A stretch of DNA of 64,000 nt from a virus. Its lineage: Duplodnaviria; Caudoviricetes. Within the stretch, counting starts at the first letter, position 1. Each line of letters begins with the position of its first letter. A model generated the notes under the pieces. That model saw only the letters and a program-made list of their open reading frames with translations. It made no database searches and was not told where the DNA came from. Where the stretch lies: IMG/VR virus record IMGVR_UViG_3300012956_000018, positions 1-64,000 of that record; one strand, 5' to 3'. Both the position numbers and the translations under genes were made by a program. Positions 1,066-17,217 of the stretch are shown one piece after another.

Positions 1066-4000
1066 ATGTACAAGATACCTAAAGGATTTCATTTTCTAAG
1101 AGAATCAGGACTAGCAGTGCCTGGTACTCCTGTGTCTAGACGTATCGCTGAGAGACTTACCCTAACTGAGGCTAAGTCTAATGGGCAATTACGTATTGTG
1201 CTACCTGCTACTGTATTGGATACTGAAAATCTGAATCATAGAACGTATCCTACTAAGGTAATGAAGAAAGCTATAGAAAGTAAAGAATTTAGAGCTAAGA
1301 TGGAAGGAGGGTACCTTCTGTGCTCAGGAGACGATCACCCAGATACTCCATATGTAAAGCCTATTCTAGCTAGTCACTTAGTTACAAATGCTTTTATAAA
1401 GAAGATTGAGGGTGTTAGCTACTTAATGAATGAGTGGTTGACTTTACCTACTGACAATGGTCGTAATCTTCGTGGAGTATTCGAAGGTGGAGCCGCTATT
1501 GGAGTATCAATAAGAGGATTCGGTAGATCTGCAGATAATGAGTCTTCAGCATCTGGGGTTATTGAGGAGTATGAATACTTAGGTACTGATGCTGTCGGAG
1601 AGCCATCAGCTAAATTATACGCTGGTATTAAAGTCCCTCATGTAGAGGTCTTAGAATGTGTTACTCCTAAGATTACTCTAAGCGAGTCTAGAGCTATAGT
1701 AGAAGACCGTAAGCACTATAATGATAAAGATGAGTGGGTAAAAGATGTTGTCAGATTAGGTCTTAAATTAAATGCTGATAAAGACACAGCATGGAATCCA
1801 GATATTCCTGAAGTAACACGAGCATCTTGGATGGCCAATCATAATCGAGGATGGATTATCGAAGCATCCATTAGTACCTTAGGATCAAGTGATTATGATA
1901 ATTTCGATGATTGGAAAGGTGATGCTTTAGATAAGGGATATGATGTTAGTAATGATAATGGAGTGTTCTACGCATCACGTAATGGCGATGTAAGAGGAGC
2001 TTTTGACAAGAATAGCAACTCTGGATATTTAGAATCTAGAATTGTTGAATCTATGGAAGTAGGAAAAAGAGTAAAAGTAATTACTCAGGATTCTCCATAT
2101 TACAATAAGTCGGGTAAGATTGTTAAGTCTTACATTGTAAGTAATGATCGCGGATCAATGAGATATGGTGTAGTGTTCGATGACGGATCAGCTAGCGATT
2201 TCTGGTATAGAGATTTAGTAGAAGAGTCTTTTACTAAAGATAATGAAGGATGGTGTGTTGTTACTGCTGGTAACAAAGTGAAAGCTGGCCCGTATACTTA
2301 TAAGAATGATGCTAGAACTGTTATAGATAGAAACCCTAACTGGGAAGGGTTATCTATACTTTGGGGCACAAAAGACTCTAATAATTCTTACGTTAAAACT
2401 TCAGCTAGTGATACTAGAAATTCTGAAGCCACTGAGTGTGGAGGAGATCTTCCACCTGCTCCAATCATCAAGAAAGATGATGAAGAAGATACTCATGAAT
2501 CAGTAAAAGAAGCATTTTATTCAAATAAAGATGCTTGGATTAATGATATGAAAGAACATGGGGCTGCTAGCTTTGAAGAAGATGGTAGTGCTGTATATGC
2601 CTATTCTTCTGAAAAGAAAATACTAGGTGTTTGGAGTAATACTGAAAATCAAGGAATAACTATAGGAGAATCCAAATCCTATGCTGTAGGCGACAGAATC
2701 TCATGGAAAGATATAGCATATGGATCAGTAAGCGATACTCAACAAGCATCAGGAAAGATAGTCGATATTCAAGGCTCAAATATTACAGTAGTGAGAGATG
2801 ACGATAATTCTACTGAAATAATTGATGTATCTTCGATTAATGAAGCTAGAGATAAAAAGTCTTATAAAGTAGGAGATACTATTTATTGGGATGAAGAAGA
2901 CCCAGGAGAAATATTAGGAAGATTCACAACTATGTCAGGAATGGTGACTGATGTACAGAGAAATGGATATATAGTAAGGCGAGATGATGATGATACTGAA
3001 GAATTGATTCAGTTTTCCTGGGTTAATGAGGCTGTTTATTCTGATTTTAATGCATGGAAGATTGGAGCTTCTTCGTTTGGAGCAGTGACATTTACCACTA
3101 AAGACGATGATGAGTATGCTCAAGATCCTAATAAGAAGATAGTTGGTATATGGTCTAGTAAGATGAAGAAAGGATTAACAGGTAGTGGAGTGGAAGCTAT
3201 GATTAGTAGACTAGAGTCTAAGAGTGTATTTAAAGAGTGGATAGATAATTATTACCTAGTAAAGAAGACCGCTACTACCGCTCCAGGTGGAGATGATGGT
3301 CACACTCATAATTATGACCCATTAATTAAGCACGGTATCACAGGCCCAGGTGGACCCGATAGCCATACTCATGTATTTAGTATCTCACTAGGTGAGACTG
3401 CTCCAGGAGGTACTGATGGTCATACTCATTTAATGGATTTTGCTATAGTACCTGTTGAATCTTTAATTAAATCTTCTAATAAAGATAAACATAGTTTAAT
3501 AGAGAATATTAATTCTTTAGTTAGCCATGTTCACCCATCTGATTTTAATGCTATATTAACAGTAGCTAAAAATTATTTAGGGTATTTAGCTAAGGATAGT
3601 ATTAGTATAGAGAGTGTTTTGAATAAGGCTCATTGGAAGACTCTTGAGTCTATGCAAAATGTATTATGCAATTCTAAATTTTCTTATATTACTCATAGTT
3701 CTATTTCCAATACAGAGGCAAGTAAGATGAAGAAGATAAAAGAGGAAATATTAGGAGGTGATGAAGTATCTATTCAGTCGCCAAATCCTAATAATGCTAC
3801 TGCAGATAAGGATAGTGCAGATACGCTAGGTGGAGATTCTTCTGATGAGAATCAGGATCAAGGACCACTAAATGCTACTGCTGACGAAGATGATGCTCCA
3901 TTATTAGGAGGCGATTCGTCTACTAGTCAAGATGAATCTGATAATAATAGTACATCAGAGTCAAAAAAGAAATTGAAAGAAGACATATTAGATGCTGATG

Positions 4001-5265
4001 CTGGTGGTCAAGATGCAGCTGATTCAAACAAATTAGCCGATGATGATAAGGACGAGCTACCTGTGCCGCCTATATCAGAAGGAGCATTAGGCGGCCATCC
4101 AGTTGCTGCTAGTATTATTTCTACTAATCAACATGATAGGGTTATGAGAGTAGTTCCTAATAATCCTGATCACTGGCAGTTAGTAAGAGATATTCTCAAA
4201 GCTAATGGAGCTACCCTGGCTCCTGATGTGCCTGGTGAAGTTAGAGTAGTAGTACCAGCAGGAGTGCTTGATCCTATGAGTCATTATCACATCAATGATG
4301 TCTCAGCTAATCCGCTACCAGTAAGTCCTGCTGCTATGGACTCAGTAAGAAACATTGTATCAGCAGTTATATCCAAGAATGGTAAAGCTGCAGGTATGCG
4401 TAAGCTGATTTCTATAGAATCTGAGCTTAGTCAGCTGAAGGATGTCAAGAAATTGTCTGAAGGAGTAAAGAATTTAGATAATATTAAGAATGAATTATTT
4501 GGATCTTCACTTGCGCCTGATAGAGATAGTAAAATGATGAAGACGGAAAAGATATCCGATGATGTAAATAATCTAGCAAAAATTATTGTCGAGGCATCTA
4601 AGATAGTATCTTCACTAGAGAAATCTAGTGTATCTCCTGAAGTAATGGCTTCAGTTAAGTCACTAGTAGAGTATGTTCAAAATTGTGAGGATTTAGTGGC
4701 TAGAGGGGCGTCTTTACTAGATACTAAAGATAAAGAAGTCTCCAAGTTAATAGAAGGTCTTCACAGTGTGTTTGTCACCGATACTCCAGTAAAGAATCTA
4801 AGTGAAGCTCTAGATATTATTCAACAGAGTGGAAAGATGATCGGTGGATTAAAATCCCAGTTGAATGATGCTAGTAATAGGACTACTACTATAATGACTC
4901 TTATCGATAATATAAGAGTATTTTACCGTAAAGAATTTAATACACTCAAGAAGCGTAATGAAGCTAGCACCAAGCTAGTCGAAGCACTACGATCCCGAAT
5001 AAGACTCATGGTAGATACTAAGGAATCTTCTAAGTACGATGCTCCTAAGGATATTGCTGAAGCTGCTGACGCAGTTATTGCTAAATATCCTGCTCTTCGC
5101 ATATTCCGAGAAGAGTTGATTAAGATAGCTAAGAAGTCAGACGATGTTCATGGTCTTGCTAAGAAGTATCTTGGAATTCGCGAGACTAGTATTAGCTATA
5201 CTGAAGCTAAGGATACTCGTAAATCAGGAACAGGTGAGAGAAGCATAGTTCCTGGCATGATTTAA
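1066..5265 (+). CDS. prohead core protease (T4 gp21-like) fused to repeated cargo modules and an acidic/coiled-coil scaffold
   Basis: N-terminal ~200 aa has ENLNHRTYP, DHP...ASH and GVSIRGFG (catalytic His/Ser motifs of gp21-type proteases); the rest is modular with many (I/L/V)xE-S/A sites; directly upstream of the MCP. Confidence 0.85.
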   Translation: MYKIPKGFHFLRESGLAVPGTPVSRRIAERLTLTEAKSNGQLRIVLPATVLDTENLNHRTYPTKVMKKAIESKEFRAKMEGGYLLCSGDDHPDTPYVKPILASHLVTNAFIKKIEGVSYLMNEWLTLPTDNGRNLRGVFEGGAAIGVSIRGFGRSADNESSASGVIEEYEYLGTDAVGEPSAKLYAGIKVPHVEVLECVTPKITLSESRAIVEDRKHYNDKDEWVKDVVRLGLKLNADKDTAWNPDIPEVTRASWMANHNRGWIIEASISTLGSSDYDNFDDWKGDALDKGYDVSNDNGVFYASRNGDVRGAFDKNSNSGYLESRIVESMEVGKRVKVITQDSPYYNKSGKIVKSYIVSNDRGSMRYGVVFDDGSASDFWYRDLVEESFTKDNEGWCVVTAGNKVKAGPYTYKNDARTVIDRNPNWEGLSILWGTKDSNNSYVKTSASDTRNSEATECGGDLPPAPIIKKDDEEDTHESVKEAFYSNKDAWINDMKEHGAASFEEDGSAVYAYSSEKKILGVWSNTENQGITIGESKSYAVGDRISWKDIAYGSVSDTQQASGKIVDIQGSNITVVRDDDNSTEIIDVSSINEARDKKSYKVGDTIYWDEEDPGEILGRFTTMSGMVTDVQRNGYIVRRDDDDTEELIQFSWVNEAVYSDFNAWKIGASSFGAVTFTTKDDDEYAQDPNKKIVGIWSSKMKKGLTGSGVEAMISRLESKSVFKEWIDNYYLVKKTATTAPGGDDGHTHNYDPLIKHGITGPGGPDSHTHVFSISLGETAPGGTDGHTHLMDFAIVPVESLIKSSNKDKHSLIENINSLVSHVHPSDFNAILTVAKNYLGYLAKDSISIESVLNKAHWKTLESMQNVLCNSKFSYITHSSISNTEASKMKKIKEEILGGDEVSIQSPNPNNATADKDSADTLGGDSSDENQDQGPLNATADEDDAPLLGGDSSTSQDESDNNSTSESKKKLKEDILDADAGGQDAADSNKLADDDKDELPVPPISEGALGGHPVAASIISTNQHDRVMRVVPNNPDHWQLVRDILKANGATLAPDVPGEVRVVVPAGVLDPMSHYHINDVSANPLPVSPAAMDSVRNIVSAVISKNGKAAGMRKLISIESELSQLKDVKKLSEGVKNLDNIKNELFGSSLAPDRDSKMMKTEKISDDVNNLAKIIVEASKIVSSLEKSSVSPEVMASVKSLVEYVQNCEDLVARGASLLDTKDKEVSKLIEGLHSVFVTDTPVKNLSEALDIIQQSGKMIGGLKSQLNDASNRTTTIMTLIDNIRVFYRKEFNTLKKRNEASTKLVEALRSRIRLMVDTKESSKYDAPKDIAEAADAVIAKYPALRIFREELIKIAKKSDDVHGLAKKYLGIRETSISYTEAKDTRKSGTGERSIVPGMI

Positions 5266-5294: not shown

Positions 5295-6746
5295 ATGGAC
5301 TCGATTATTACTGAAATCGCTGGTGGCAATCGTCTTGTTACTGAGAGTAATAGAGATGCTGATGCCGAAAGAGCCCTTCTTAAAGAAGGATATGATGTTA
5401 TCGAAACTCATCCTAAGTGGAGAGATCGTTACCGTAGTTTAGTAGAGAAGGTGGATAAAGGCAATCTACGTGAAAGACGAGTTGCTGCTTCTACTTTCGT
5501 CGTTATGAGAAATCAGGAAAATTACCTGAATACTCTTAATGAAGCTACTATTATGAATTCTCTGGGGCCTCTAGCTCCTAGTGTGATGGATATTGTTCGC
5601 ATATTCTTCCCGAATATGATAGCAAATCTCATTGCTGAGATTCAGCCTATCGCTCAGCCTAATAGCTCAGTGTTAACTGTAAAGCCTCGCTATACTAACA
5701 GCGGTGGTGGAGTTAATGCTGGAGATGAAGTGTTTAAGAAAGGTACTGATGGCAATTATGCGTCGGATACTGTTACTTGGGCTCTAGGTACTGGTAATGC
5801 TGTTGCGACCAACTTCACTGCCACCCTCACTCCAGCTCCTATCCGTCCAGGCACTGTGAGAGTGTATGTGAATGGAGCAAGTATTGCTGCTGATAACGGT
5901 GATGGAGGGTTCCATGGAGCTGCTCTTAGTACCGGTACATTGAACTATACTTCTGGCGCTATTAGTGTAACTTTCGGCACTGCTCCAGCTGCTGCTGCTG
6001 CTATTACCTTAGAGTATAGGTACGATTATGAAATCAATGTTGACAATCTGAGAGGATTGGATATTGGTCTCAATCTTGTGCCTGTTAATGCCAAGCCTCA
6101 TCCTTTGAAACTGACTTGGTCAGTAGCGTCACAACTAGCTGCTCAGGCTCAGTATTCACTGGATGTTGAATCTACTCTTGCTGATCTAGCAGCTCAGTTT
6201 ATTCGTAAGGAGAGAGACTGGGCTCTTGTTAGCAGGATCTCTAATGCTGCGACTGCTGTGACTGATCTTAATTTTGATGCCACTGTCCCTAATAGTGGTA
6301 ATGCTCTTACTAAGAAGCAGCACTATCAGGATTGGGGTCTGAAGTTACGTCGTGCATCGAGCTTTATTTATAATAAGAATCAGAGAGGTAATGTTAGTTT
6401 CGTGTTAGCAGGCATCAATGCTGCTGACGTGATTAGTGCTCAGGCTAACTTTATTCCTGAGCCAACTGTTGTTCCAATCGGTGCTTACAAGATCGGTACC
6501 CTTGATGGTGTAGTGGATGTCATTCTTGATGCTTCTATGGATGCGAATACCTATGTGTTCGGATTCCGTGGTATGCAGCTGGGTGATGCTGCTATGATCA
6601 TTGCTGAGTGGATTCCTATCTTCGTAACTCCAACTTGGCAGTCGCCAAATCTGCAGGGTCAGCAGGGCTTACTCAGTATGTATGATTACTTACTGAATAA
6701 TCCTGACTACTATGCTAAGGGCACTCTGTCTGGTTATACTGCTTAA
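5295..6746 (+). CDS. major capsid protein (T4 gp23-like) with an inserted beta-rich domain
   Basis: IVRIFFPNMIANLIAEIQPI, VPVNAKPHPLKLTWSVASQLAAQAQYSLDVE and YKIGTLDG match gp23-family patterns; propeptide with LVTE-S and LNE-A sites; GGAG RBS; hairpin terminator downstream. Confidence 0.92.
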   Translation: MDSIITEIAGGNRLVTESNRDADAERALLKEGYDVIETHPKWRDRYRSLVEKVDKGNLRERRVAASTFVVMRNQENYLNTLNEATIMNSLGPLAPSVMDIVRIFFPNMIANLIAEIQPIAQPNSSVLTVKPRYTNSGGGVNAGDEVFKKGTDGNYASDTVTWALGTGNAVATNFTATLTPAPIRPGTVRVYVNGASIAADNGDGGFHGAALSTGTLNYTSGAISVTFGTAPAAAAAITLEYRYDYEINVDNLRGLDIGLNLVPVNAKPHPLKLTWSVASQLAAQAQYSLDVESTLADLAAQFIRKERDWALVSRISNAATAVTDLNFDATVPNSGNALTKKQHYQDWGLKLRRASSFIYNKNQRGNVSFVLAGINAADVISAQANFIPEPTVVPIGAYKIGTLDGVVDVILDASMDANTYVFGFRGMQLGDAAMIIAEWIPIFVTPTWQSPNLQGQQGLLSMYDYLLNNPDYYAKGTLSGYTA

Positions 6747-7729: not shown

Positions 7730-10700
7730 ATGGCTGATGGAACACGATTAAATGATGGTACTGGTGGCGATCTAATAGCTACTGATGATATCACTGGAGG
7801 TGGAGTAGCTAATAATCAGAAAGTGCAGAGAATTAAAGTAGGGTTTGGTACTGATAATAATTATGTAGACGTAGATGCTACTACCAATAGACTACCTGTA
7901 GATATTCAATCTATTCCAGCTGGCACTAACAATATAGGTGACATAGACGTATTAACTCTACCGTCAGCTACAGTAGCTGGAACTACATCGAAGACTGCTG
8001 ATTTAGATACTGGAGTAGGCACCGATAATGTTATGTTAGTTGGCCTAGCTCTACCTGCTTCAGGTGGAGCAGTAGTAGGCGGCTCTTCTGCTAATCCTAT
8101 ACGTGTCGATCCAGTAGGCACTACTCCTCAGCCAGTATCTGGCACTGTTACCGTAAATCCTCATGATGTAGGATCTATTACTGTAGGAGTAGTTCCAGGA
8201 GTAGGGTCGACTAATCTAGGTAAGGCTGAAGATGCTGCTCATTCTTCTGGCGATACTGGTGTTATGTTACTGGCTGTTAGACGAGATGTAGCAACAGCTG
8301 GTGTAAATGCAGATGGTGATTATGCTGCACTATCTATAACTTCTACTGGATCATTAAGAGTAGACGCATCTGGATCAAACATTCCAATTACTGATGCTGG
8401 CGGATCTCTCACTGTAGATGCCCCTGTAGGTACTCCAGTTAACGTACAAATAGGCGATGGAATTAGAACAGCTAGTGTTAGAGATACTGGGGCTAGCGAT
8501 TCACTTAACGTTGCTATAGTAGATGCTGCAGGTAATCAGATAGTTAATTTTGGAGGATCTGGAGGAGGCACCCAATACCAAGAAGATAATCCTCATGCTT
8601 CTGGTGATACTGGCACTGTTGCTTTAGTAGTAAGAAGAGATACCCCTATATCTTCATCTAATCTAGATGGAGACTACTCAGTACTATCAGTAAATAGTGT
8701 AGGCAGATTATATACTAGTGCTACTATAGACTCAGCACTACCTGCTGGAAGTAATGCTATAGGTAGCGTGAGTATTAATGCGGCTTTACCTACCGGCACT
8801 AATACTGTAGGATCCATAGCCAGTGTCACTACTTCCATAACTCCAGGTACTGCTGCAGCTAACTTAGGTAAGGCTGAAGATGCTGTTCATACTTCTGGAG
8901 ATACAGGAGTACTATCTCTAGCTGTGCGTAGAGATTCAGTTGCATCAGGAACTAGTGCTGATGGTGACTACGCTACTTTAAATGTTAATTCGTCTGGCAG
9001 ACTCTATACTACTGCTACTATCGATACTGCCTTGCCGGCAGGATCAAATACTATAGGTAATGTTGGAATATCTTCAGCTATTCCTGCAGGCACTAACAAT
9101 ATAGGCGACGTGGATGTCTTGACAGTAGTAACAGGCACTGGCCCGACTAATCTAGGTAAGGCTGTAGATGCTGTTGCTGGAGCTACTGATACTGGTGTAG
9201 CTGCTCTAGCTGTGAGAGATGATGCTTTAGCTGCTTTGGCTGTTGCTGATGGCGACTATACTCATCTTAGAGTAACCTCTACTGGAGCTCTATGGGTAGA
9301 AGTTACTAATGGCATTAATGGAGTTAATGAAGATACTCCTCAGGTAGATGGCGGTGAGGCTTTGCCAGTCTTAGCTGTCAGAAGAGACGTAGCTGCATCA
9401 GGAGTAACTGCTGATGGTGATTATGCTTATCTATCAGTAGATGCATCAGGAGCATTAAGAGTAACTGGTGGCGGATCTGGAGCTCAGTATGTAGAAGATA
9501 CTCCGTCGACTGGGGCTGAATCATTAACATTAGTAGGAGCAGTTCGTCAGGATACTTTAGCTACTAGTACTAGTGCTGATGGTGATTATGCTAATTTAAA
9601 AGTTGCTGCTAATGGTAGACTGTATACTTCTTCAACTATAGATGCTGCTTTGCCAACAGGTGGTAATACCATCGGTTCAATTTCTAGTATAGCTACCTCA
9701 GTTACTCCAGGTACTGCTGCAGCTAACTTAGGTAAGGCTGTGGATTCTGCTCTAGGAGCTACTGATACTGGTGTAGCTGCTCTAGCTGTGAGGGATGATG
9801 CTCTATCTGCTCTTACTCCTGCTGATAATGACTATACGAATTTAAGAGTTAATTCTACTGGAGCTCTATGGGTTGCTGTGTCGAATGGAGTCCCGGCTAG
9901 AGCAGAGGACTCTGCCCAAGTAGATGGTGGAGATGGCGTAGCCATGTTAGCTGTCCGTAGAGATTCGGCTACATCTGGGGTAAGTGCTGACGGTGACTAT
10001 GCGTATTTATCAGTAGATGCTAATGGAGCATTACGTGTTGCTGGTGGGGGTGGAGGTACTCAATTTGCTGAAGATGCTGCCCATACTTCAGGAGATCTAG
10101 GAACATTAGCTCTAGTAGTCAGGCAAGATACTCTAGCATCTAGTACTTCTGCTGATGGCGATTATGCTGCACTTAAAGTGTCATCTGTAGGCAGACTATA
10201 CACTACTGCAGTTCTCGATACCGCACTACCAGCTGGTACTAATAATATCGGAGATGTGGATGTATTAACATTGCCTGTCTTACCTGCCGGTGATAACAAT
10301 ATTGGTAATGTAGATATTGTTACTCTTCCTGCTTTACCTGCGGGCACTAATAATATTGGTGATGTAGATGTCCTTACACTACCTGCATTACCGGCGGGTA
10401 CTAATAATATAGGTGACGTAGATGTACTCACCCTCCCAGCTATTCCTGCTGGTACTAATACTATAGGTAATGTTGGAATTGCTCCTAGAACTTCAGGCGG
10501 GCTATCTATATCTAGAAGTATTAATATACAATCAGCATCTTCATTAAACGTAAAAGCAAGTGCTGGCCAACTATATGGGTATTATCTATTCAATGCTGCG
10601 GCTTCTGTAAGATATGTTAAGATATATAATGCTACATCAGCGGTTGCTGGTACCGGTAATCCGGTGATTACTATACCGTTGCCTGCTGGAGCTGGAGCTA

Positions 10701-10828
10701 ATGTAGAGTGGAGTACTGGTATCGCATTCTCAACAGGTATTGCAGTAGTAGCATCTACTGGTATTGCAGATACTGATACTGGTGCTCCGACTGCTAATGA
10801 TGTAATAGGCAATTTCTTCTATGCTTAA
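7730..10828 (+). CDS. repeat-rich fibre/decoration structural protein
   Basis: Nine units of E/VD...LAVRxD...DGDY..L.V...G.L, five 18-aa PAGxNxIGxVD units, and a C-terminal beta-sandwich (KASAGQLYGYYLFN). Confidence 0.75.
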   Translation: MADGTRLNDGTGGDLIATDDITGGGVANNQKVQRIKVGFGTDNNYVDVDATTNRLPVDIQSIPAGTNNIGDIDVLTLPSATVAGTTSKTADLDTGVGTDNVMLVGLALPASGGAVVGGSSANPIRVDPVGTTPQPVSGTVTVNPHDVGSITVGVVPGVGSTNLGKAEDAAHSSGDTGVMLLAVRRDVATAGVNADGDYAALSITSTGSLRVDASGSNIPITDAGGSLTVDAPVGTPVNVQIGDGIRTASVRDTGASDSLNVAIVDAAGNQIVNFGGSGGGTQYQEDNPHASGDTGTVALVVRRDTPISSSNLDGDYSVLSVNSVGRLYTSATIDSALPAGSNAIGSVSINAALPTGTNTVGSIASVTTSITPGTAAANLGKAEDAVHTSGDTGVLSLAVRRDSVASGTSADGDYATLNVNSSGRLYTTATIDTALPAGSNTIGNVGISSAIPAGTNNIGDVDVLTVVTGTGPTNLGKAVDAVAGATDTGVAALAVRDDALAALAVADGDYTHLRVTSTGALWVEVTNGINGVNEDTPQVDGGEALPVLAVRRDVAASGVTADGDYAYLSVDASGALRVTGGGSGAQYVEDTPSTGAESLTLVGAVRQDTLATSTSADGDYANLKVAANGRLYTSSTIDAALPTGGNTIGSISSIATSVTPGTAAANLGKAVDSALGATDTGVAALAVRDDALSALTPADNDYTNLRVNSTGALWVAVSNGVPARAEDSAQVDGGDGVAMLAVRRDSATSGVSADGDYAYLSVDANGALRVAGGGGGTQFAEDAAHTSGDLGTLALVVRQDTLASSTSADGDYAALKVSSVGRLYTTAVLDTALPAGTNNIGDVDVLTLPVLPAGDNNIGNVDIVTLPALPAGTNNIGDVDVLTLPALPAGTNNIGDVDVLTLPAIPAGTNTIGNVGIAPRTSGGLSISRSINIQSASSLNVKASAGQLYGYYLFNAAASVRYVKIYNATSAVAGTGNPVITIPLPAGAGANVEWSTGIAFSTGIAVVASTGIADTDTGAPTANDVIGNFFYA
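10215..10470 (+). repeat. five ~54-bp coding tandem repeats
   Basis: PAGTNNIGDVDVLTLPAL-type units. Confidence 0.85.
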
Positions 10829-13898: not shown

Positions 13899-14204
13899 AT
13901 GCCGAAATTATTATCAGTAATTGAATCTAAGTTATATACTATAAAAGATCTTCGACGTGCTGCATCAAGAGTAGGCGCTACAGTTGAAGATAATAGCACT
14001 AAGTATGAATTAGATTATCAAGTTATGTCGCCTCATGGTAAATTTTGGAAAGATTCGAATAGTGTTCACCTGGCTGTGTATACTTATAAAAATGATTTAA
14101 ATCAAGTTAGCAGTACTATACAAGATGCTATAGAAAGAATAGAATTCGGTCTTTATGACCCTGGTAAGGAAGAGTATGAGTATCAAACTGGAGAGAAATA
14201 CTGA
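13899..14204 (+). CDS. small MPKL-leader protein 1 (putative internal head protein)
   Basis: Starts MPKLLSVIES. Confidence 0.7.
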   Translation: MPKLLSVIESKLYTIKDLRRAASRVGATVEDNSTKYELDYQVMSPHGKFWKDSNSVHLAVYTYKNDLNQVSSTIQDAIERIEFGLYDPGKEEYEYQTGEKY

Positions 14205-14446
14205 TGCCTAAGCTAACTAAATTAGTATCAGAATGTATATCTGAATCTCTACTGCCAAATATTAAATCATCTGTATCTGAAATGAATACGCTAGGTATTG
14301 ATTGGGATAGATATACTTTTATATCTACCGACGGAAACAGTATAAAGATATCTATTGATGCAAAGAAACTGGTTAGAGATTATGGTAAATTTGGATTCGA
14401 CTCATACAAAGAACCGAGTGGATTTGTTACTATAGAGATTAATTGA
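14204..14446 (+). CDS. small MPKL-leader protein 2
   Basis: Starts MPKLTKLVSECISES; TGATG overlap. Confidence 0.7.
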   Translation: MPKLTKLVSECISESLLPNIKSSVSEMNTLGIDWDRYTFISTDGNSIKISIDAKKLVRDYGKFGFDSYKEPSGFVTIEIN

Positions 14447-14447
14447 T

Positions 14448-14783
14448 ATGCCTAAGCTTATAGATATTTGTGAATCTTTATATTATGATGTAGCTATATT
14501 ATATTTTCGTAATCCTTACGATGCTGATAGTGCTGCGTCTATATTACACGGTTCAAAATTACTTAAAGGATCTTTAGTAAAGTTAAATAAATCCACGGAC
14601 AGAATAATATTTAATGATATATCTAGAGATATGTATTTGAAAGCTATACAACTATTATCTGCGAATAATATTCGATTCGATCAAGAGACCCCAGAAACTA
14701 GTGTGCCCGTTGGAACATCAGTTCGTAGTGGGTTCACTAATAATGTTAACAGGGCTCAGTATAAGTATAGAGTTGCTAAATGA
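14448..14783 (+). CDS. small MPKL-leader protein 3
   Basis: Starts MPKLIDICES. Confidence 0.7.
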   Translation: MPKLIDICESLYYDVAILYFRNPYDADSAASILHGSKLLKGSLVKLNKSTDRIIFNDISRDMYLKAIQLLSANNIRFDQETPETSVPVGTSVRSGFTNNVNRAQYKYRVAK

Positions 14784-14951
14784 AAGTGATAAAGTATTCT
14801 GAAACGTTCTATAGGGCCGAGGTGCATTCGCACTCTCGATCTTATAGTCACGATAATAAGATACTAAATAGTGACTACATTATCTACTGTGTGTAAATAG
14901 TATAAAATTAATAAGATCTATTACTATAGAGATCAATTAGGAATTATATCT

Positions 14952-15133
14952 ATGCCTAAATTAATAAAACTGGAGTATTTAGTTTTGAAGTTCAAAGCTT
15001 AGGAGGGAGAATAGGAGGTAAGATTGGAGGAGCAGTAGCAGGAAAGACTTATCACAAGTGTCCTCAGTGTGGAGCAGAAGGCCGTGGGCCGTCTATGCTT
15101 AGATGGCATATGAGTAATTGCAAAAAGAAATAG
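14952..15133 (+). pseudogene. chimeric remnant: MPKL leader joined out of frame to a homing-endonuclease-like C-terminus
   Basis: ATG 14952 gives MPKLIKLEYLVLKFKA*; the -1 frame 14960-15133 gives ...QSLGGRIGGKIGG...CPQCGAEGRGPSMLRWHMSNCKKK* with no start codon. Confidence 0.6.
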
Positions 15134-15138
15134 CTGCT

Positions 15139-15735
15139 ATGGAAAATTTTAAAACAGCTTTCGATAAGACTATGGCTCATGAAGAAGGATATGCAAACGA
15201 TCCTGATGATTTAGGAGGGGAGACTATCCGTGGTATAGCTAGAGCCTATCATCCTAAGTGGCTAGGATGGGCTAAGATTGATCTTATTAAGGCTCATGGA
15301 AATACTACTGCTGAGCAAATTAATGCTATTGTAAAATCAGATCCTACACTAATTCATTTAATACTAGAATTTTATAGAGATGAGTTTTGGGATAAGATAA
15401 GAGGTGATGAATTACCTCTTGAACTATCTATGGAGATGTTCGATACTGCTGTAAACATGAGTCCATCTAGAGCTATAGAATTTCTTCAAGAAGGATTAAA
15501 TCTCAGTAATCGTAATCAAAAAGATTACCCAGATATTCTAGTAGATAGTAAATTAGGACCTACTACTATGAATACATTAAAATTATATCAAACTAAGTCT
15601 CCTAGAGATATTCAGTTTCTTATCAATATAATGAACATCCTTCAAGGATGTTACTATATTAATAGGTATCGTCAGTCTCCTACTCAAGAAAAGTATCATG
15701 GCTGGTTCAATAGGGTAATAATCAAACATGCCTAA
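15139..15735 (+). CDS. endolysin, glycoside hydrolase family 108 with peptidoglycan-binding domain
   Basis: HEEGYANDPDDLGGETIRGI, FYRDEFWD, MFDTAVNM, DSKLGPTT, GWFNRV. Confidence 0.9.
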   Translation: MENFKTAFDKTMAHEEGYANDPDDLGGETIRGIARAYHPKWLGWAKIDLIKAHGNTTAEQINAIVKSDPTLIHLILEFYRDEFWDKIRGDELPLELSMEMFDTAVNMSPSRAIEFLQEGLNLSNRNQKDYPDILVDSKLGPTTMNTLKLYQTKSPRDIQFLINIMNILQGCYYINRYRQSPTQEKYHGWFNRVIIKHA

Positions 15736-16039
15736 ATTAATATCGATTAAAGATAGTATAGAATCTCAATGGCCGAATTTAGTAGCATTTGTACATGGAG
15801 CATTTCAAGCTAATAGCGGTGCTCCTAAATCTAAAGCTATAGATTTCCTAAATAATGAACTAAAGATTAATTCTAATATTAAAAATCTTTACGATCTTGC
15901 AGATAAGTCTCTTGTTACTATATTCGGTACTATAAGTAATATTAAGATTGCTGGTATGGATGCTGATACCGGAGATAATAGTAGTCAAGGAAAAATTATT
16001 CCTGCATCTGCTATTAGTATACTAGATAATGCGTATTAG
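15728..16039 (+). CDS. small MPKL-leader protein 4
   Basis: Starts MPKLISIKDSIES. Confidence 0.7.
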   Translation: MPKLISIKDSIESQWPNLVAFVHGAFQANSGAPKSKAIDFLNNELKINSNIKNLYDLADKSLVTIFGTISNIKIAGMDADTGDNSSQGKIIPASAISILDNAY

Positions 16040-16041
16040 AT

Positions 16042-16242
16042 ATGCCTAAGCTTATTTCAGTTAAGGGGATGAAATTAACAGCAAATCGTGACAACAATAG
16101 CAGATTTATTGCTATTGTATCATCTAAAGAAGAAGCTGCTAGTATTATAGATAATATGGAAGCGAGTGGTACTTGGCCTGAGGGATTTGATGCTATTTTA
16201 GATAATATATGGCTGTATACTGATAAGTGGGAATCTCTTTGA
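16042..16242 (+). CDS. small MPKL-leader protein 5
   Basis: Starts MPKLISVKG. Confidence 0.65.
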   Translation: MPKLISVKGMKLTANRDNNSRFIAIVSSKEEAASIIDNMEASGTWPEGFDAILDNIWLYTDKWESL

Positions 16243-16445
16243 TGTCTAAGCTATTAAAACTAGACGGCATAGCTTTGCTGTATTTTACTAGCTTTGAAAG
16301 CTGGTCGGCTAAGGCTATCGAATTAGGCTATGATAGATTAGATAAAGATAAAAACGCTAAAGCTATAAATCCTGATACAGGCGAAATAGTAGGTGGATGG
16401 GACTCTAATTCTAAATTTTGGTGGATAAGAGATAAAGATGCCTAA
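16242..16445 (+). CDS. small MSKL-leader protein 6; free-standing copy of a protease module
   Basis: TGATG overlap; MSKLLKLDG...FTSFESWSAKAIELGY...AINPDTGEIVGGWDS resembles four modules inside 1066..5265. Confidence 0.7.
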   Translation: MSKLLKLDGIALLYFTSFESWSAKAIELGYDRLDKDKNAKAINPDTGEIVGGWDSNSKFWWIRDKDA

Positions 16446-16671
16446 TCTTATAGATATTATTGAAACTGATGGGTTAGATCTTAATATGATAGGCGTAGAT
16501 AGCGATTTATTTGCTATAAGAATAAATAATATTAAATATAAATATAGACCCATAAATATGTCTCCTCAGGAATTAGCAGTAAAATTTTCAAAGATGTCAG
16601 TATTTAGTAAGGGCAAAGCCCTAGCGTGGTTAAAGAAGAACTCTGAATTAGCAGATAAGTCTGCTATTTGA
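16438..16671 (+). CDS. small MPNL-leader protein 7
   Basis: Starts MPNLIDIIET; C-terminus KFSKMSVFSKGKALAWLKKN. Confidence 0.7.
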   Translation: MPNLIDIIETDGLDLNMIGVDSDLFAIRINNIKYKYRPINMSPQELAVKFSKMSVFSKGKALAWLKKNSELADKSAI

Positions 16672-16689
16672 TATTTTAGGAGATACACT

Positions 16690-17217
16690 GTGTTTAATGT
16701 AGTAAATATTAAAAGTAAAATGAGAAAAGTAGGTTATACTGAGAAAGTGATAAGATCAGTATGTAGTATACTGGCTCTTGAATCGAATACTCGATTACCC
16801 CACCACACTATGATTTTGGCATGCAGAAATGCTAGGATTAATGTTGATGAATTTAAGAATAAGATATTAGAATCTGATTTCAAAGTAGGCGATAAGGTAA
16901 GAGTGCCTAAAGATTTATCAGGTGAAGATAGAGATTTAATTGGAACTGTGATTAGTGCTGGGAATGCAGAAGTAAAGGTGCAATTACCTACTGGCCAAGG
17001 ACCGAGTTATCAAATAATTGTTATGGATACTGAAATCAGTAAAGAATCAGTACTAAAAGAAGATCATTTTCAGGTAGATGACAGAGTGATGACTAAAGAT
17101 GGTGATACCGGTAAAGTCACTAGTATTCTTAATTATGGTACTGATGATGAAGTATATATGATAAAGCTGGACAATGGTAGTATTAGAGACTATAGACCTA
17201 GTGAGTTGGTACTTTAA
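16690..17217 (+). CDS. protein with two KOW/SH3-like modules
   Basis: GTG start after GGAG; ILES-DFKVGDKVRV and VLKE-DHFQVDDRVMT...GKVTSI. Confidence 0.7.
   Translation: MFNVVNIKSKMRKVGYTEKVIRSVCSILALESNTRLPHHTMILACRNARINVDEFKNKILESDFKVGDKVRVPKDLSGEDRDLIGTVISAGNAEVKVQLPTGQGPSYQIIVMDTEISKESVLKEDHFQVDDRVMTKDGDTGKVTSILNYGTDDEVYMIKLDNGSIRDYRPSELVL

Follow-up and report, generated by a model that had tools for sequence, protein, structure and literature searches.

One small domain in a phage genome, embedded in a prohead protease-scaffold polyprotein and free-standing behind a leader-type N-terminus

Does a small late gene of a tailed phage encode the same domain that is built several times over into the phage's prohead protease and, if so, does that domain reach the capsid by two routes, as a piece of a polyprotein and as a separate protein bearing a leader? 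The question arises in a contig of 77,090 bases from an uncultured phage in IMG/VR (estimated completeness ~70%), the first 64 kb of which form the stretch of DNA analysed here, referred to as the window. No close relatives of the contig were found in a phage collection of 50,697 records. The gene concerned, P0001 (16242..16445, plus strand), runs from the ATG at 16242 to the stop codon at 16443-16445 and encodes 67 aa, of which aa 1-12 (16242..16277) form the leader and aa 13-67 (16278..16442) the module. It is tightly set between its neighbours: the upstream stop codon overlaps its start as TGATG, and the ATG of the next gene lies 8 nt ahead of its end. A search of 5.8 billion clustered proteins with P0001 alone recovered only P0001 itself, no PHROG or Pfam family matched it and no sequence homology to the internal proteins (IPs) or the capsid targeting sequence (CTS) of phage T4 was found.

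An earlier note on this DNA had claimed that P0001 is homologous to modules embedded in the protease ORF (P0002; 1066..5265, plus strand; 1399 aa), and had aligned it with two segments of that ORF. The homology is borne out by shuffles, profile searches and hhalign. The alignment exists, but the number of segments has to be raised, as a profile search gives four copies in P0002, at aa 214-269, 273-328, 483-538 and 656-711. The Smith-Waterman score of P0001 against P0002 is 60, compared with 35.9 +/- 5.0 for shuffled sequences, and none of 500 shuffles reached 60. When an HMM of the four internal modules was run without filters against the 669 six-frame ORFs of >=30 aa, P0001 was the sole non-self match (E 2e-4); with corrected module boundaries, P0001 scored 13.1 bits with the four-module HMM, the maximum in 5000 shuffles being 11.3. 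Alignment of the four-module profile with P0001 by hhalign gave a probability of 78.5% (E 1.7e-5) over 47 columns. Lastly, an HMM built only from external sequences (10 module instances from 7 metagenomic proteins) matches ORF 1066 (E 4e-31; individual E of its four domains 0.065, 2.7e-6, 5.7e-12 and 2.3e-11) and P0001 (E 2.1e-7) and no other ORF, whether the window or all 77 kb of the genome are searched. This external test is partly circular, because the profile with which the external proteins were retrieved included P0001; its outcome agrees with that of the internal-only tests.

It is hardly credible, in our estimate, that the similarity is a product of chance or that the P0001 ORF is no gene at all. 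Such a view could point to an identity of merely 16-27% between P0001 and the internal copies over ~50 residues, and to a pairwise z of ~4.5 that is also attained by ORF 15728 against the scaffold region of P0002, a candidate pair rejected for want of profile support. It is countered by the agreement of three profile tests, by the selection of exactly P0001 and ORF 1066 by the external-only profile, by a confident AF2 model of P0001 and by the packing of the ORF between coupled neighbours. Chance similarity is rejected by the shuffles and the ORF-wide searches. From the sequence comparisons, P0001 and the four modules of ORF 1066 can be regarded as real members of one ~50-aa domain family, distantly related to one another. 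The low identity points therefore to old paralogy or duplication rather than to a recent copy. Module copy 2 is the best pairwise partner of P0001.

The claim that the modules are embedded in a protease ORF also holds, since ORF 1066 matches a gp21-type protease and carries [ILV]xE sites at the module borders. By homology, the N-terminus of P0002 is a prohead protease of the gp21 type (Peptidase_S77), assigned to aa 1-213 (1066..1704, plus strand). Pfam family PF03420 is matched over aa 54-183 with 27.1 bits, just at the Pfam cut-off of 27, a bare threshold match that counts against delivery by two routes; phrog_207 is matched over aa 35-182 with E 8e-15. In tblastn, annotated head maturation proteases were matched in 138 phage records, and the nearest homologues belong to Xanthomonas phage phiXF1 and Pseudomonas phage QdP_Psa3, both of ~114 kb. 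The domain is 51% identical to those of the sister polyproteins P0012 and P0013 and ends in IVE/D, the slash marking the border between segments.

Beyond this border the chain is modular, all segments being on the plus strand. Module copies 1 (aa 214-266; 1705..1863; bounded by IVE/D and IIE/A) and 2 (aa 267-328; 1864..2049; ending IVE/S) come first, then an SH3/Tudor-like module (aa 329-387; 2050..2226; ending LVEE/S) and an unclassified segment of 95 aa (aa 388-482; 2227..2511; ending VKE/A). Copy 3 (aa 483-535; 2512..2670) is bounded by VKE/A and IGE/S and is followed by SH3-like modules 2 (aa 536-593; 2671..2844; ending INE/A) and 3 (aa 594-655; 2845..3030; ending VNE/A), and these by copy 4 (aa 656-711; 3031..3198). 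A triple GGxDGHTH His-repeat (aa 731-813; 3256..3504) comes next and is conserved in P0012 (BLAST E 2e-9) and P0013 (2e-6); possibly it binds metal as part of the protease-scaffold protein. An acidic tract separates the His-repeat from the C-terminal coiled-coil tail, a scaffold-like region of ~390 aa (aa 1006-1399; 4081..5262) that is conserved with P0013. The gene of the major head protein (5295..6746, plus strand; phrog_138, E 3e-25) lies directly downstream. Further on, between the head and tail genes, 7730-10828 encodes a 1032-aa protein with long internal repeats and ALPAGTNNIGDVDVLTLP-type units near its C-terminus, and the long antisense ORFs in this stretch are probably artefacts of the repeats.

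The position of the candidate cleavage sites bears on whether this chain is cut. T4 gp21 cuts after Glu in L/I-x-E. In the modular region of P0002, the linkers between modules account for 20% of the residues and hold 9 of the 10 [ILV]xE sites (binomial p 3.7e-6), and I, L or V stands at P3 of 9 of 12 linker Glu residues vs 1 of 15 in the module cores (Fisher p 4e-4). An AF2 model of copy 3 places VKE/A and IGE/S just outside the folded core, in flanks of low confidence. Given the protease match and sites that lie mostly in linkers, a self-processing polyprotein appears well grounded as a reading of the sequence. The beginning of ORF 1066 also occurs, at 99% identity, on a fragment in a separate metagenome record (L005; Ga0154020_10081307, 3237 b), so the same or a near-identical phage appears in a second assembly. 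Besides this fragment, the metagenome scan returned only one short fragment.

The domain shared by P0001 and P0002 proves to be a small family of its own. The AF2 model of P0001, made with a small family alignment, has a mean pLDDT of 82.6 and the order strand, strand, helix, four strands; the module proper, with its W...G...GxW...G pattern, comprises an N-terminal strand, the helix and a four-stranded meander. Internal copy 3 is modelled with pLDDT >90 over residues 10-50 as a short strand, a helix and four strands, and the elements follow the same order in both models. Conservation in the module falls on one aromatic position, a Trp, the Gly that follows the helix, the GxW of strand 3 and the Gly that precedes the final strand. 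Foldseek, run on the module, gave no significant match in the PDB (best E 0.3), and in BFVD both models had identical top neighbours, the uncharacterised phage proteins A0A142F058 and A0A142EZN3, at a marginal E of 0.011-0.02. A VIA-align fold search found no convincing PDB match for either model (best Z 5.1 and 4.7), the ESM Atlas yielded nothing of use, and no Pfam or PHROG family matched the module. The family is thus unannotated, and its fold does not reveal its function. The modules are acidic, with pI 4.2-6.1, which argues against a role in DNA condensation.

Among 1.84 billion representative proteins, a profile made from the five copies together matched seven further proteins and one spurious repeat protein. 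Three of these, P0003, P0005 and P0007, have two modules each, starts resembling the T4 CTS (MKTFTEL.., MKSFKQI..) and joints of the IAE/A type. P0004 is a module joined to a histidine phosphatase, P0006 is a free-standing single module of 60 aa, and P0010 (802 aa) is encoded on an IMG/VR contig in a block of virion genes, with sheath/tube-like genes on one side and a head maturation protease on the other. Both P0006 and P0010 have the module at their very start and no leader. These contexts are few and fit virion proteins. Other searches for the family gave less: among longer proteins the A2 profile found P0002 alone, neither the protease domain nor P0003, P0004 or alignment A3 had a match in scans of viral contigs, and tblastn of P0001, P0003, P0005 and P0007 against the 50,697 phage records gave none either.

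The second of the two supposed routes depends on the N-terminus of P0001. Seven genes of the window, starting at 13899, 14204, 14448, 15728, 16042, 16242 and 16438 (13899..16671, plus strand), begin with M[PS][KN]L; they fit the pattern M[PS][KN]L[ILT]x[VIL], are all adjacent and lie on one strand, and a relaxed form of the pattern finds no other real gene in the 77 kb. After residue 8, no two of the seven proteins are related (best pair z 3.1). The codons for P, K and L differ synonymously, and it is therefore the peptide itself that is conserved. In four of the seven, P0001 not among them, the leader ends in [ILV]xE at residue 9-10, followed by S, T or C, the same motif as that of the polyprotein joints.

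Several other features lie within the cluster or at its edge. At 14952-15002 there is a 16-codon ORF with an MPKL leader (MPKLIKLEYLVLKFKA, then stop) and downstream of it, in another frame, a short open frame at 15003-15133 with a zinc-ribbon-like CPQC...H..NC motif; the pair may be a decayed or frameshifted leader gene. A GH108-type endolysin (15118-15735; phrog_315, E 9e-33), itself leaderless, lies amid the leader genes. The end of the last leader gene carries a terminator-like hairpin with a T-run (16649-16666), which may mark the end of the cluster transcript. Right after the cluster, 16690-17217 encodes a 175-aa protein with two VGD/VDD-type SH3/KOW-like repeats that resemble the SH3-like modules of the polyprotein. 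In a search of the window for further pairs of embedded and free-standing domains, the SH3-like profile matched this ORF at E 0.44, which is not significant. The first 30 residues of ORF 16042-16242, which take in its leader, show a marginal similarity to the C-terminal half of SH3-like module 2 (z 3.0; 1 of 200 shuffles reaches it).

Such a cluster need not encode virion proteins. The common N-terminus might stem from cassette recombination or from a need at the translation start, with P0001 acting in the cytoplasm, for example in host takeover. The leader genes have no clear SD sequences and are tightly coupled, an endolysin gene lies inside the cluster, and the same leader is found in no relative. 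The leader-sharing cluster is absent from the related cultured phage phiXF1 and from locus L004, and its absence from phiXF1 is also counted against delivery by two routes. We nonetheless consider a non-virion role improbable, in view of the retention of P-K-L despite synonymous codon variation, the occurrence at four leader ends of the motif of the polyprotein joints and the position of the cluster within the late block of structural genes and on their strand.

The description of P0001 as leader-tagged, made in the earlier note, stands in part. Its N-terminus does belong to an MPKL-type set shared by unrelated bodies, but it is the most divergent of the set and no cut site follows it. The leader, MSKLLKLDGIAL, read directly from the sequence, starts MSKLLKL, compared with MPKLI.. 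in typical members, with Ser replacing Pro. The [ILV]xE motif is absent from residues 1-18, and the nearest candidates, SFE19 and AIE27, both lie inside the fold. That P0001 has the least typical leader, with no canonical site after it, counts against delivery by two routes. In the AF2 model, residues 4-7 pair as a strand with the first strand of the domain (pLDDT ~65), and the leader may for that reason belong to the fold.

These features could also mean that P0001 is loaded, or acts, through its domain and not through its leader. It would then bind the partner of the embedded modules, be it the scaffold, the head protein or those modules, perhaps as an assembly regulator or competitor, and its N-terminus would be incidental. 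A divergent leader that has no cut site and is modelled within the fold would suit this, as would the leaderless external proteins P0006 and P0010. P0001 still fits the leader pattern at M, K, L and the hydrophobic positions 5 and 7, however, and its gene, inside the leader cluster, is translationally coupled to both neighbours; docking by the domain is accordingly, in our judgement, about as improbable as a non-virion role.

Because P0001 is homologous to the embedded modules, one domain probably reaches the capsid both as a piece of the polyprotein and as a tagged protein. In the account that we favour, P0001 would be a small, late-expressed internal head protein, made of a short MPKL-type leader and one copy of the ~50-aa alpha/beta domain, of which four older paralogues would be built into the 1399-aa polyprotein. 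By way of the conserved scaffold region at its C-terminus, the polyprotein would co-assemble with the major head protein, and the embedded modules would therefore, by construction, end up within the prohead. The gp21-type serine protease at the N-terminus would cut after Glu at the [ILV]xE sites of the module borders and release domains of ~6 kDa, most of them acidic. P0001 would enter in trans, its leader docking on the scaffold core as the T4 CTS does for IPI-III and Alt. We regard entry in cis within the protease-scaffold chain and in trans by means of the P0001 leader, with the protease then separating the chain at its linker sites, as evenly poised between acceptance and doubt. Double entry is plausible; packaging, cleavage and the targeting role of the leader are what we infer from the precedent of T4. 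The acidity of the modules counts against it, the DNA-associated internal proteins of T4 being basic. As to what the domain does, a protein-binding internal protein delivered with the DNA would be our guess, with a core filler as the alternative; filler, assembly regulator and delivered binding protein are each possible roles.

The two known sister polyproteins are informative on this last point. Among proteins of 769-2449 aa in the set of 5.8 billion clustered proteins, only P0012 (1098 aa) and P0013 (1412 aa) have the protease at 51% identity. The contig of P0012 measures 138 kb and that of P0013 124 kb; the external module protein P0005 comes from one of 132 kb. By BLAST, both keep the protease and the His-repeat, P0013 alone keeps the C-terminal scaffold, and the middles of both are unrelated to that of P0002. 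The module profile had no match in either, a result counted against delivery by two routes. With conserved ends and unrelated middles, the middle of the protease-scaffold gene is thus a variable slot in this lineage. In P0013 the slot holds an AAA ATPase (PF00004; aa 607-869) that shares 47.7% identity with a portion of phiXF1_14 ('ATPase YjoB'; PP475461.1 8263-9060), a 1338-aa protein that is free-standing in phiXF1. Judged by this sequence match, the ATPase is a second case of a domain that is built into the chain in one phage and has a gene outside it in another.

The contents of the slot may be compared with what would be expected of filler. If the modules, P0001 included, were filler of the scaffold core or spacers that determine its size, they would be cut up and expelled or left inert, and P0001 would serve to adjust their dose. 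The modules are acidic like the scaffold fragments of T4, the chain is repetitive (four module repeats and three SH3-like repeats), fold searches found no enzymatic or known binding fold, and T4 core proteins are indeed cut to short fragments that leave the head (PMC5694885). Sister polyproteins, however, fill the same slot with different modules, an AAA ATPase among them, and the external member P0004 carries a histidine phosphatase; the ATPase and the phosphatase therefore speak for payload rather than filler. Folded domains of 6 kDa would also exceed in size the peptides expelled by T4. Filler is on balance an unlikely explanation, though one we take more seriously than docking by the domain or a non-virion role.

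Each half of the favoured account, delivery both in the chain and behind a leader, has a known parallel. The internal proteins of T4 are diverse, have only the CTS in common, load onto the scaffolding core and are processed by gp21 (PMC3012670, PMC5694885), and they counter modification-dependent restriction (PMC3012670). The system described here resembles that of IPI, IPII, IPIII and Alt in its gp21-family protease, in its clustered late-region genes, in the possession of a common short N-terminal peptide by otherwise unrelated small proteins and in the hydrophobic-x-Glu site that ends this peptide in most members, P0001 being without it. It differs in that the present proteins are acidic, whereas those of T4 are basic, and have no sequence relation to the T4 IPs or CTS. 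T4 has no counterpart of a domain that is also part of the protease polyprotein. The chain itself is closest to the proteins annotated 'prohead core scaffolding protein and protease' in RaK2-like phages and to the 474-aa phiXF1_160, which likewise have an N-terminal head protease and a C-terminal scaffold and are encoded just upstream of the major head protein. P2 gpO and lambda C/Nu3 are also protease-scaffold fusions or nested proteins. P0002 differs from such fusions by the ~800 residues of repeated globular modules, His-repeat and acidic tract between protease and scaffold, and by the putative cut sites at its module borders.

Giant-phage heads of the phiKZ/SPN3US type contain families of paralogous ejection proteins whose propeptides are processed at A/S/G-x-E by a homologue of gp21 (PMC5694885, PMC10052503); the SPN3US enzyme cleaves after A-x-E and prefers Ser at P1' (PMC10052503). 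Paralogue families inside the head, identical N-termini on diverged paralogues, processing after Glu and a favoured Ser at P1' are common to both, as far as the present phage can be read from its sequence. The protein families are different ones, the residues preferred at P3 are I, L or V here, and the phiKZ/SPN3US proteins are not embedded in the protease. Encapsulins offer a more remote comparison: one and the same type of cargo may form a fusion with the shell protein or may bear a short C-terminal targeting peptide, and no protease is involved. The likeness, by analogy only, is the fusion-or-tag logic by which one domain enters an HK97-fold shell, and it is limited by differences in the carrier, which is the shell protein there and the scaffold here, and in the tag, which is C-terminal there.

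A broader proposal can be made, tentatively, and we think it rather less probable than entry by both routes in this one phage. In a clade of ~110-kb myoviruses, the protease-scaffold gene would be a general cargo carrier, and domains, enzymes included, would move between protease-flanked slots and leader-tagged or free-standing genes, the W...G...GxW module being found in both states in one genome. Internal proteins tagged with a CTS and protease-scaffold fusions were both already known. New are the protease-scaffold protein itself as the carrier, the occurrence of one domain family in the chain and in a tagged single-domain gene of the same genome, and the domain family, which is unannotated. 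A literature search for CTS and polyprotein returned no paper on such chains besides a T4 review.

What the analysis adds is a new and small family of domains, linked to the head or virion proteins of phages, and the finding that the protease-scaffold gene of this lineage has a cargo slot of variable content in its middle. If the protease-scaffold gene were indeed a general carrier, phages would have their own counterpart of the choice between fusion and tag by which encapsulins take up cargo. Should both routes be real, they would offer a natural comparison between covalent loading at a fixed stoichiometry and tagged loading at an adjustable dose. The T4 CTS has already been used for the loading of proteins into engineered capsids, and the present findings, if true, would bear on the engineering of capsids as protein carriers and would inform our understanding of how phages assemble the protein payload that they inject.
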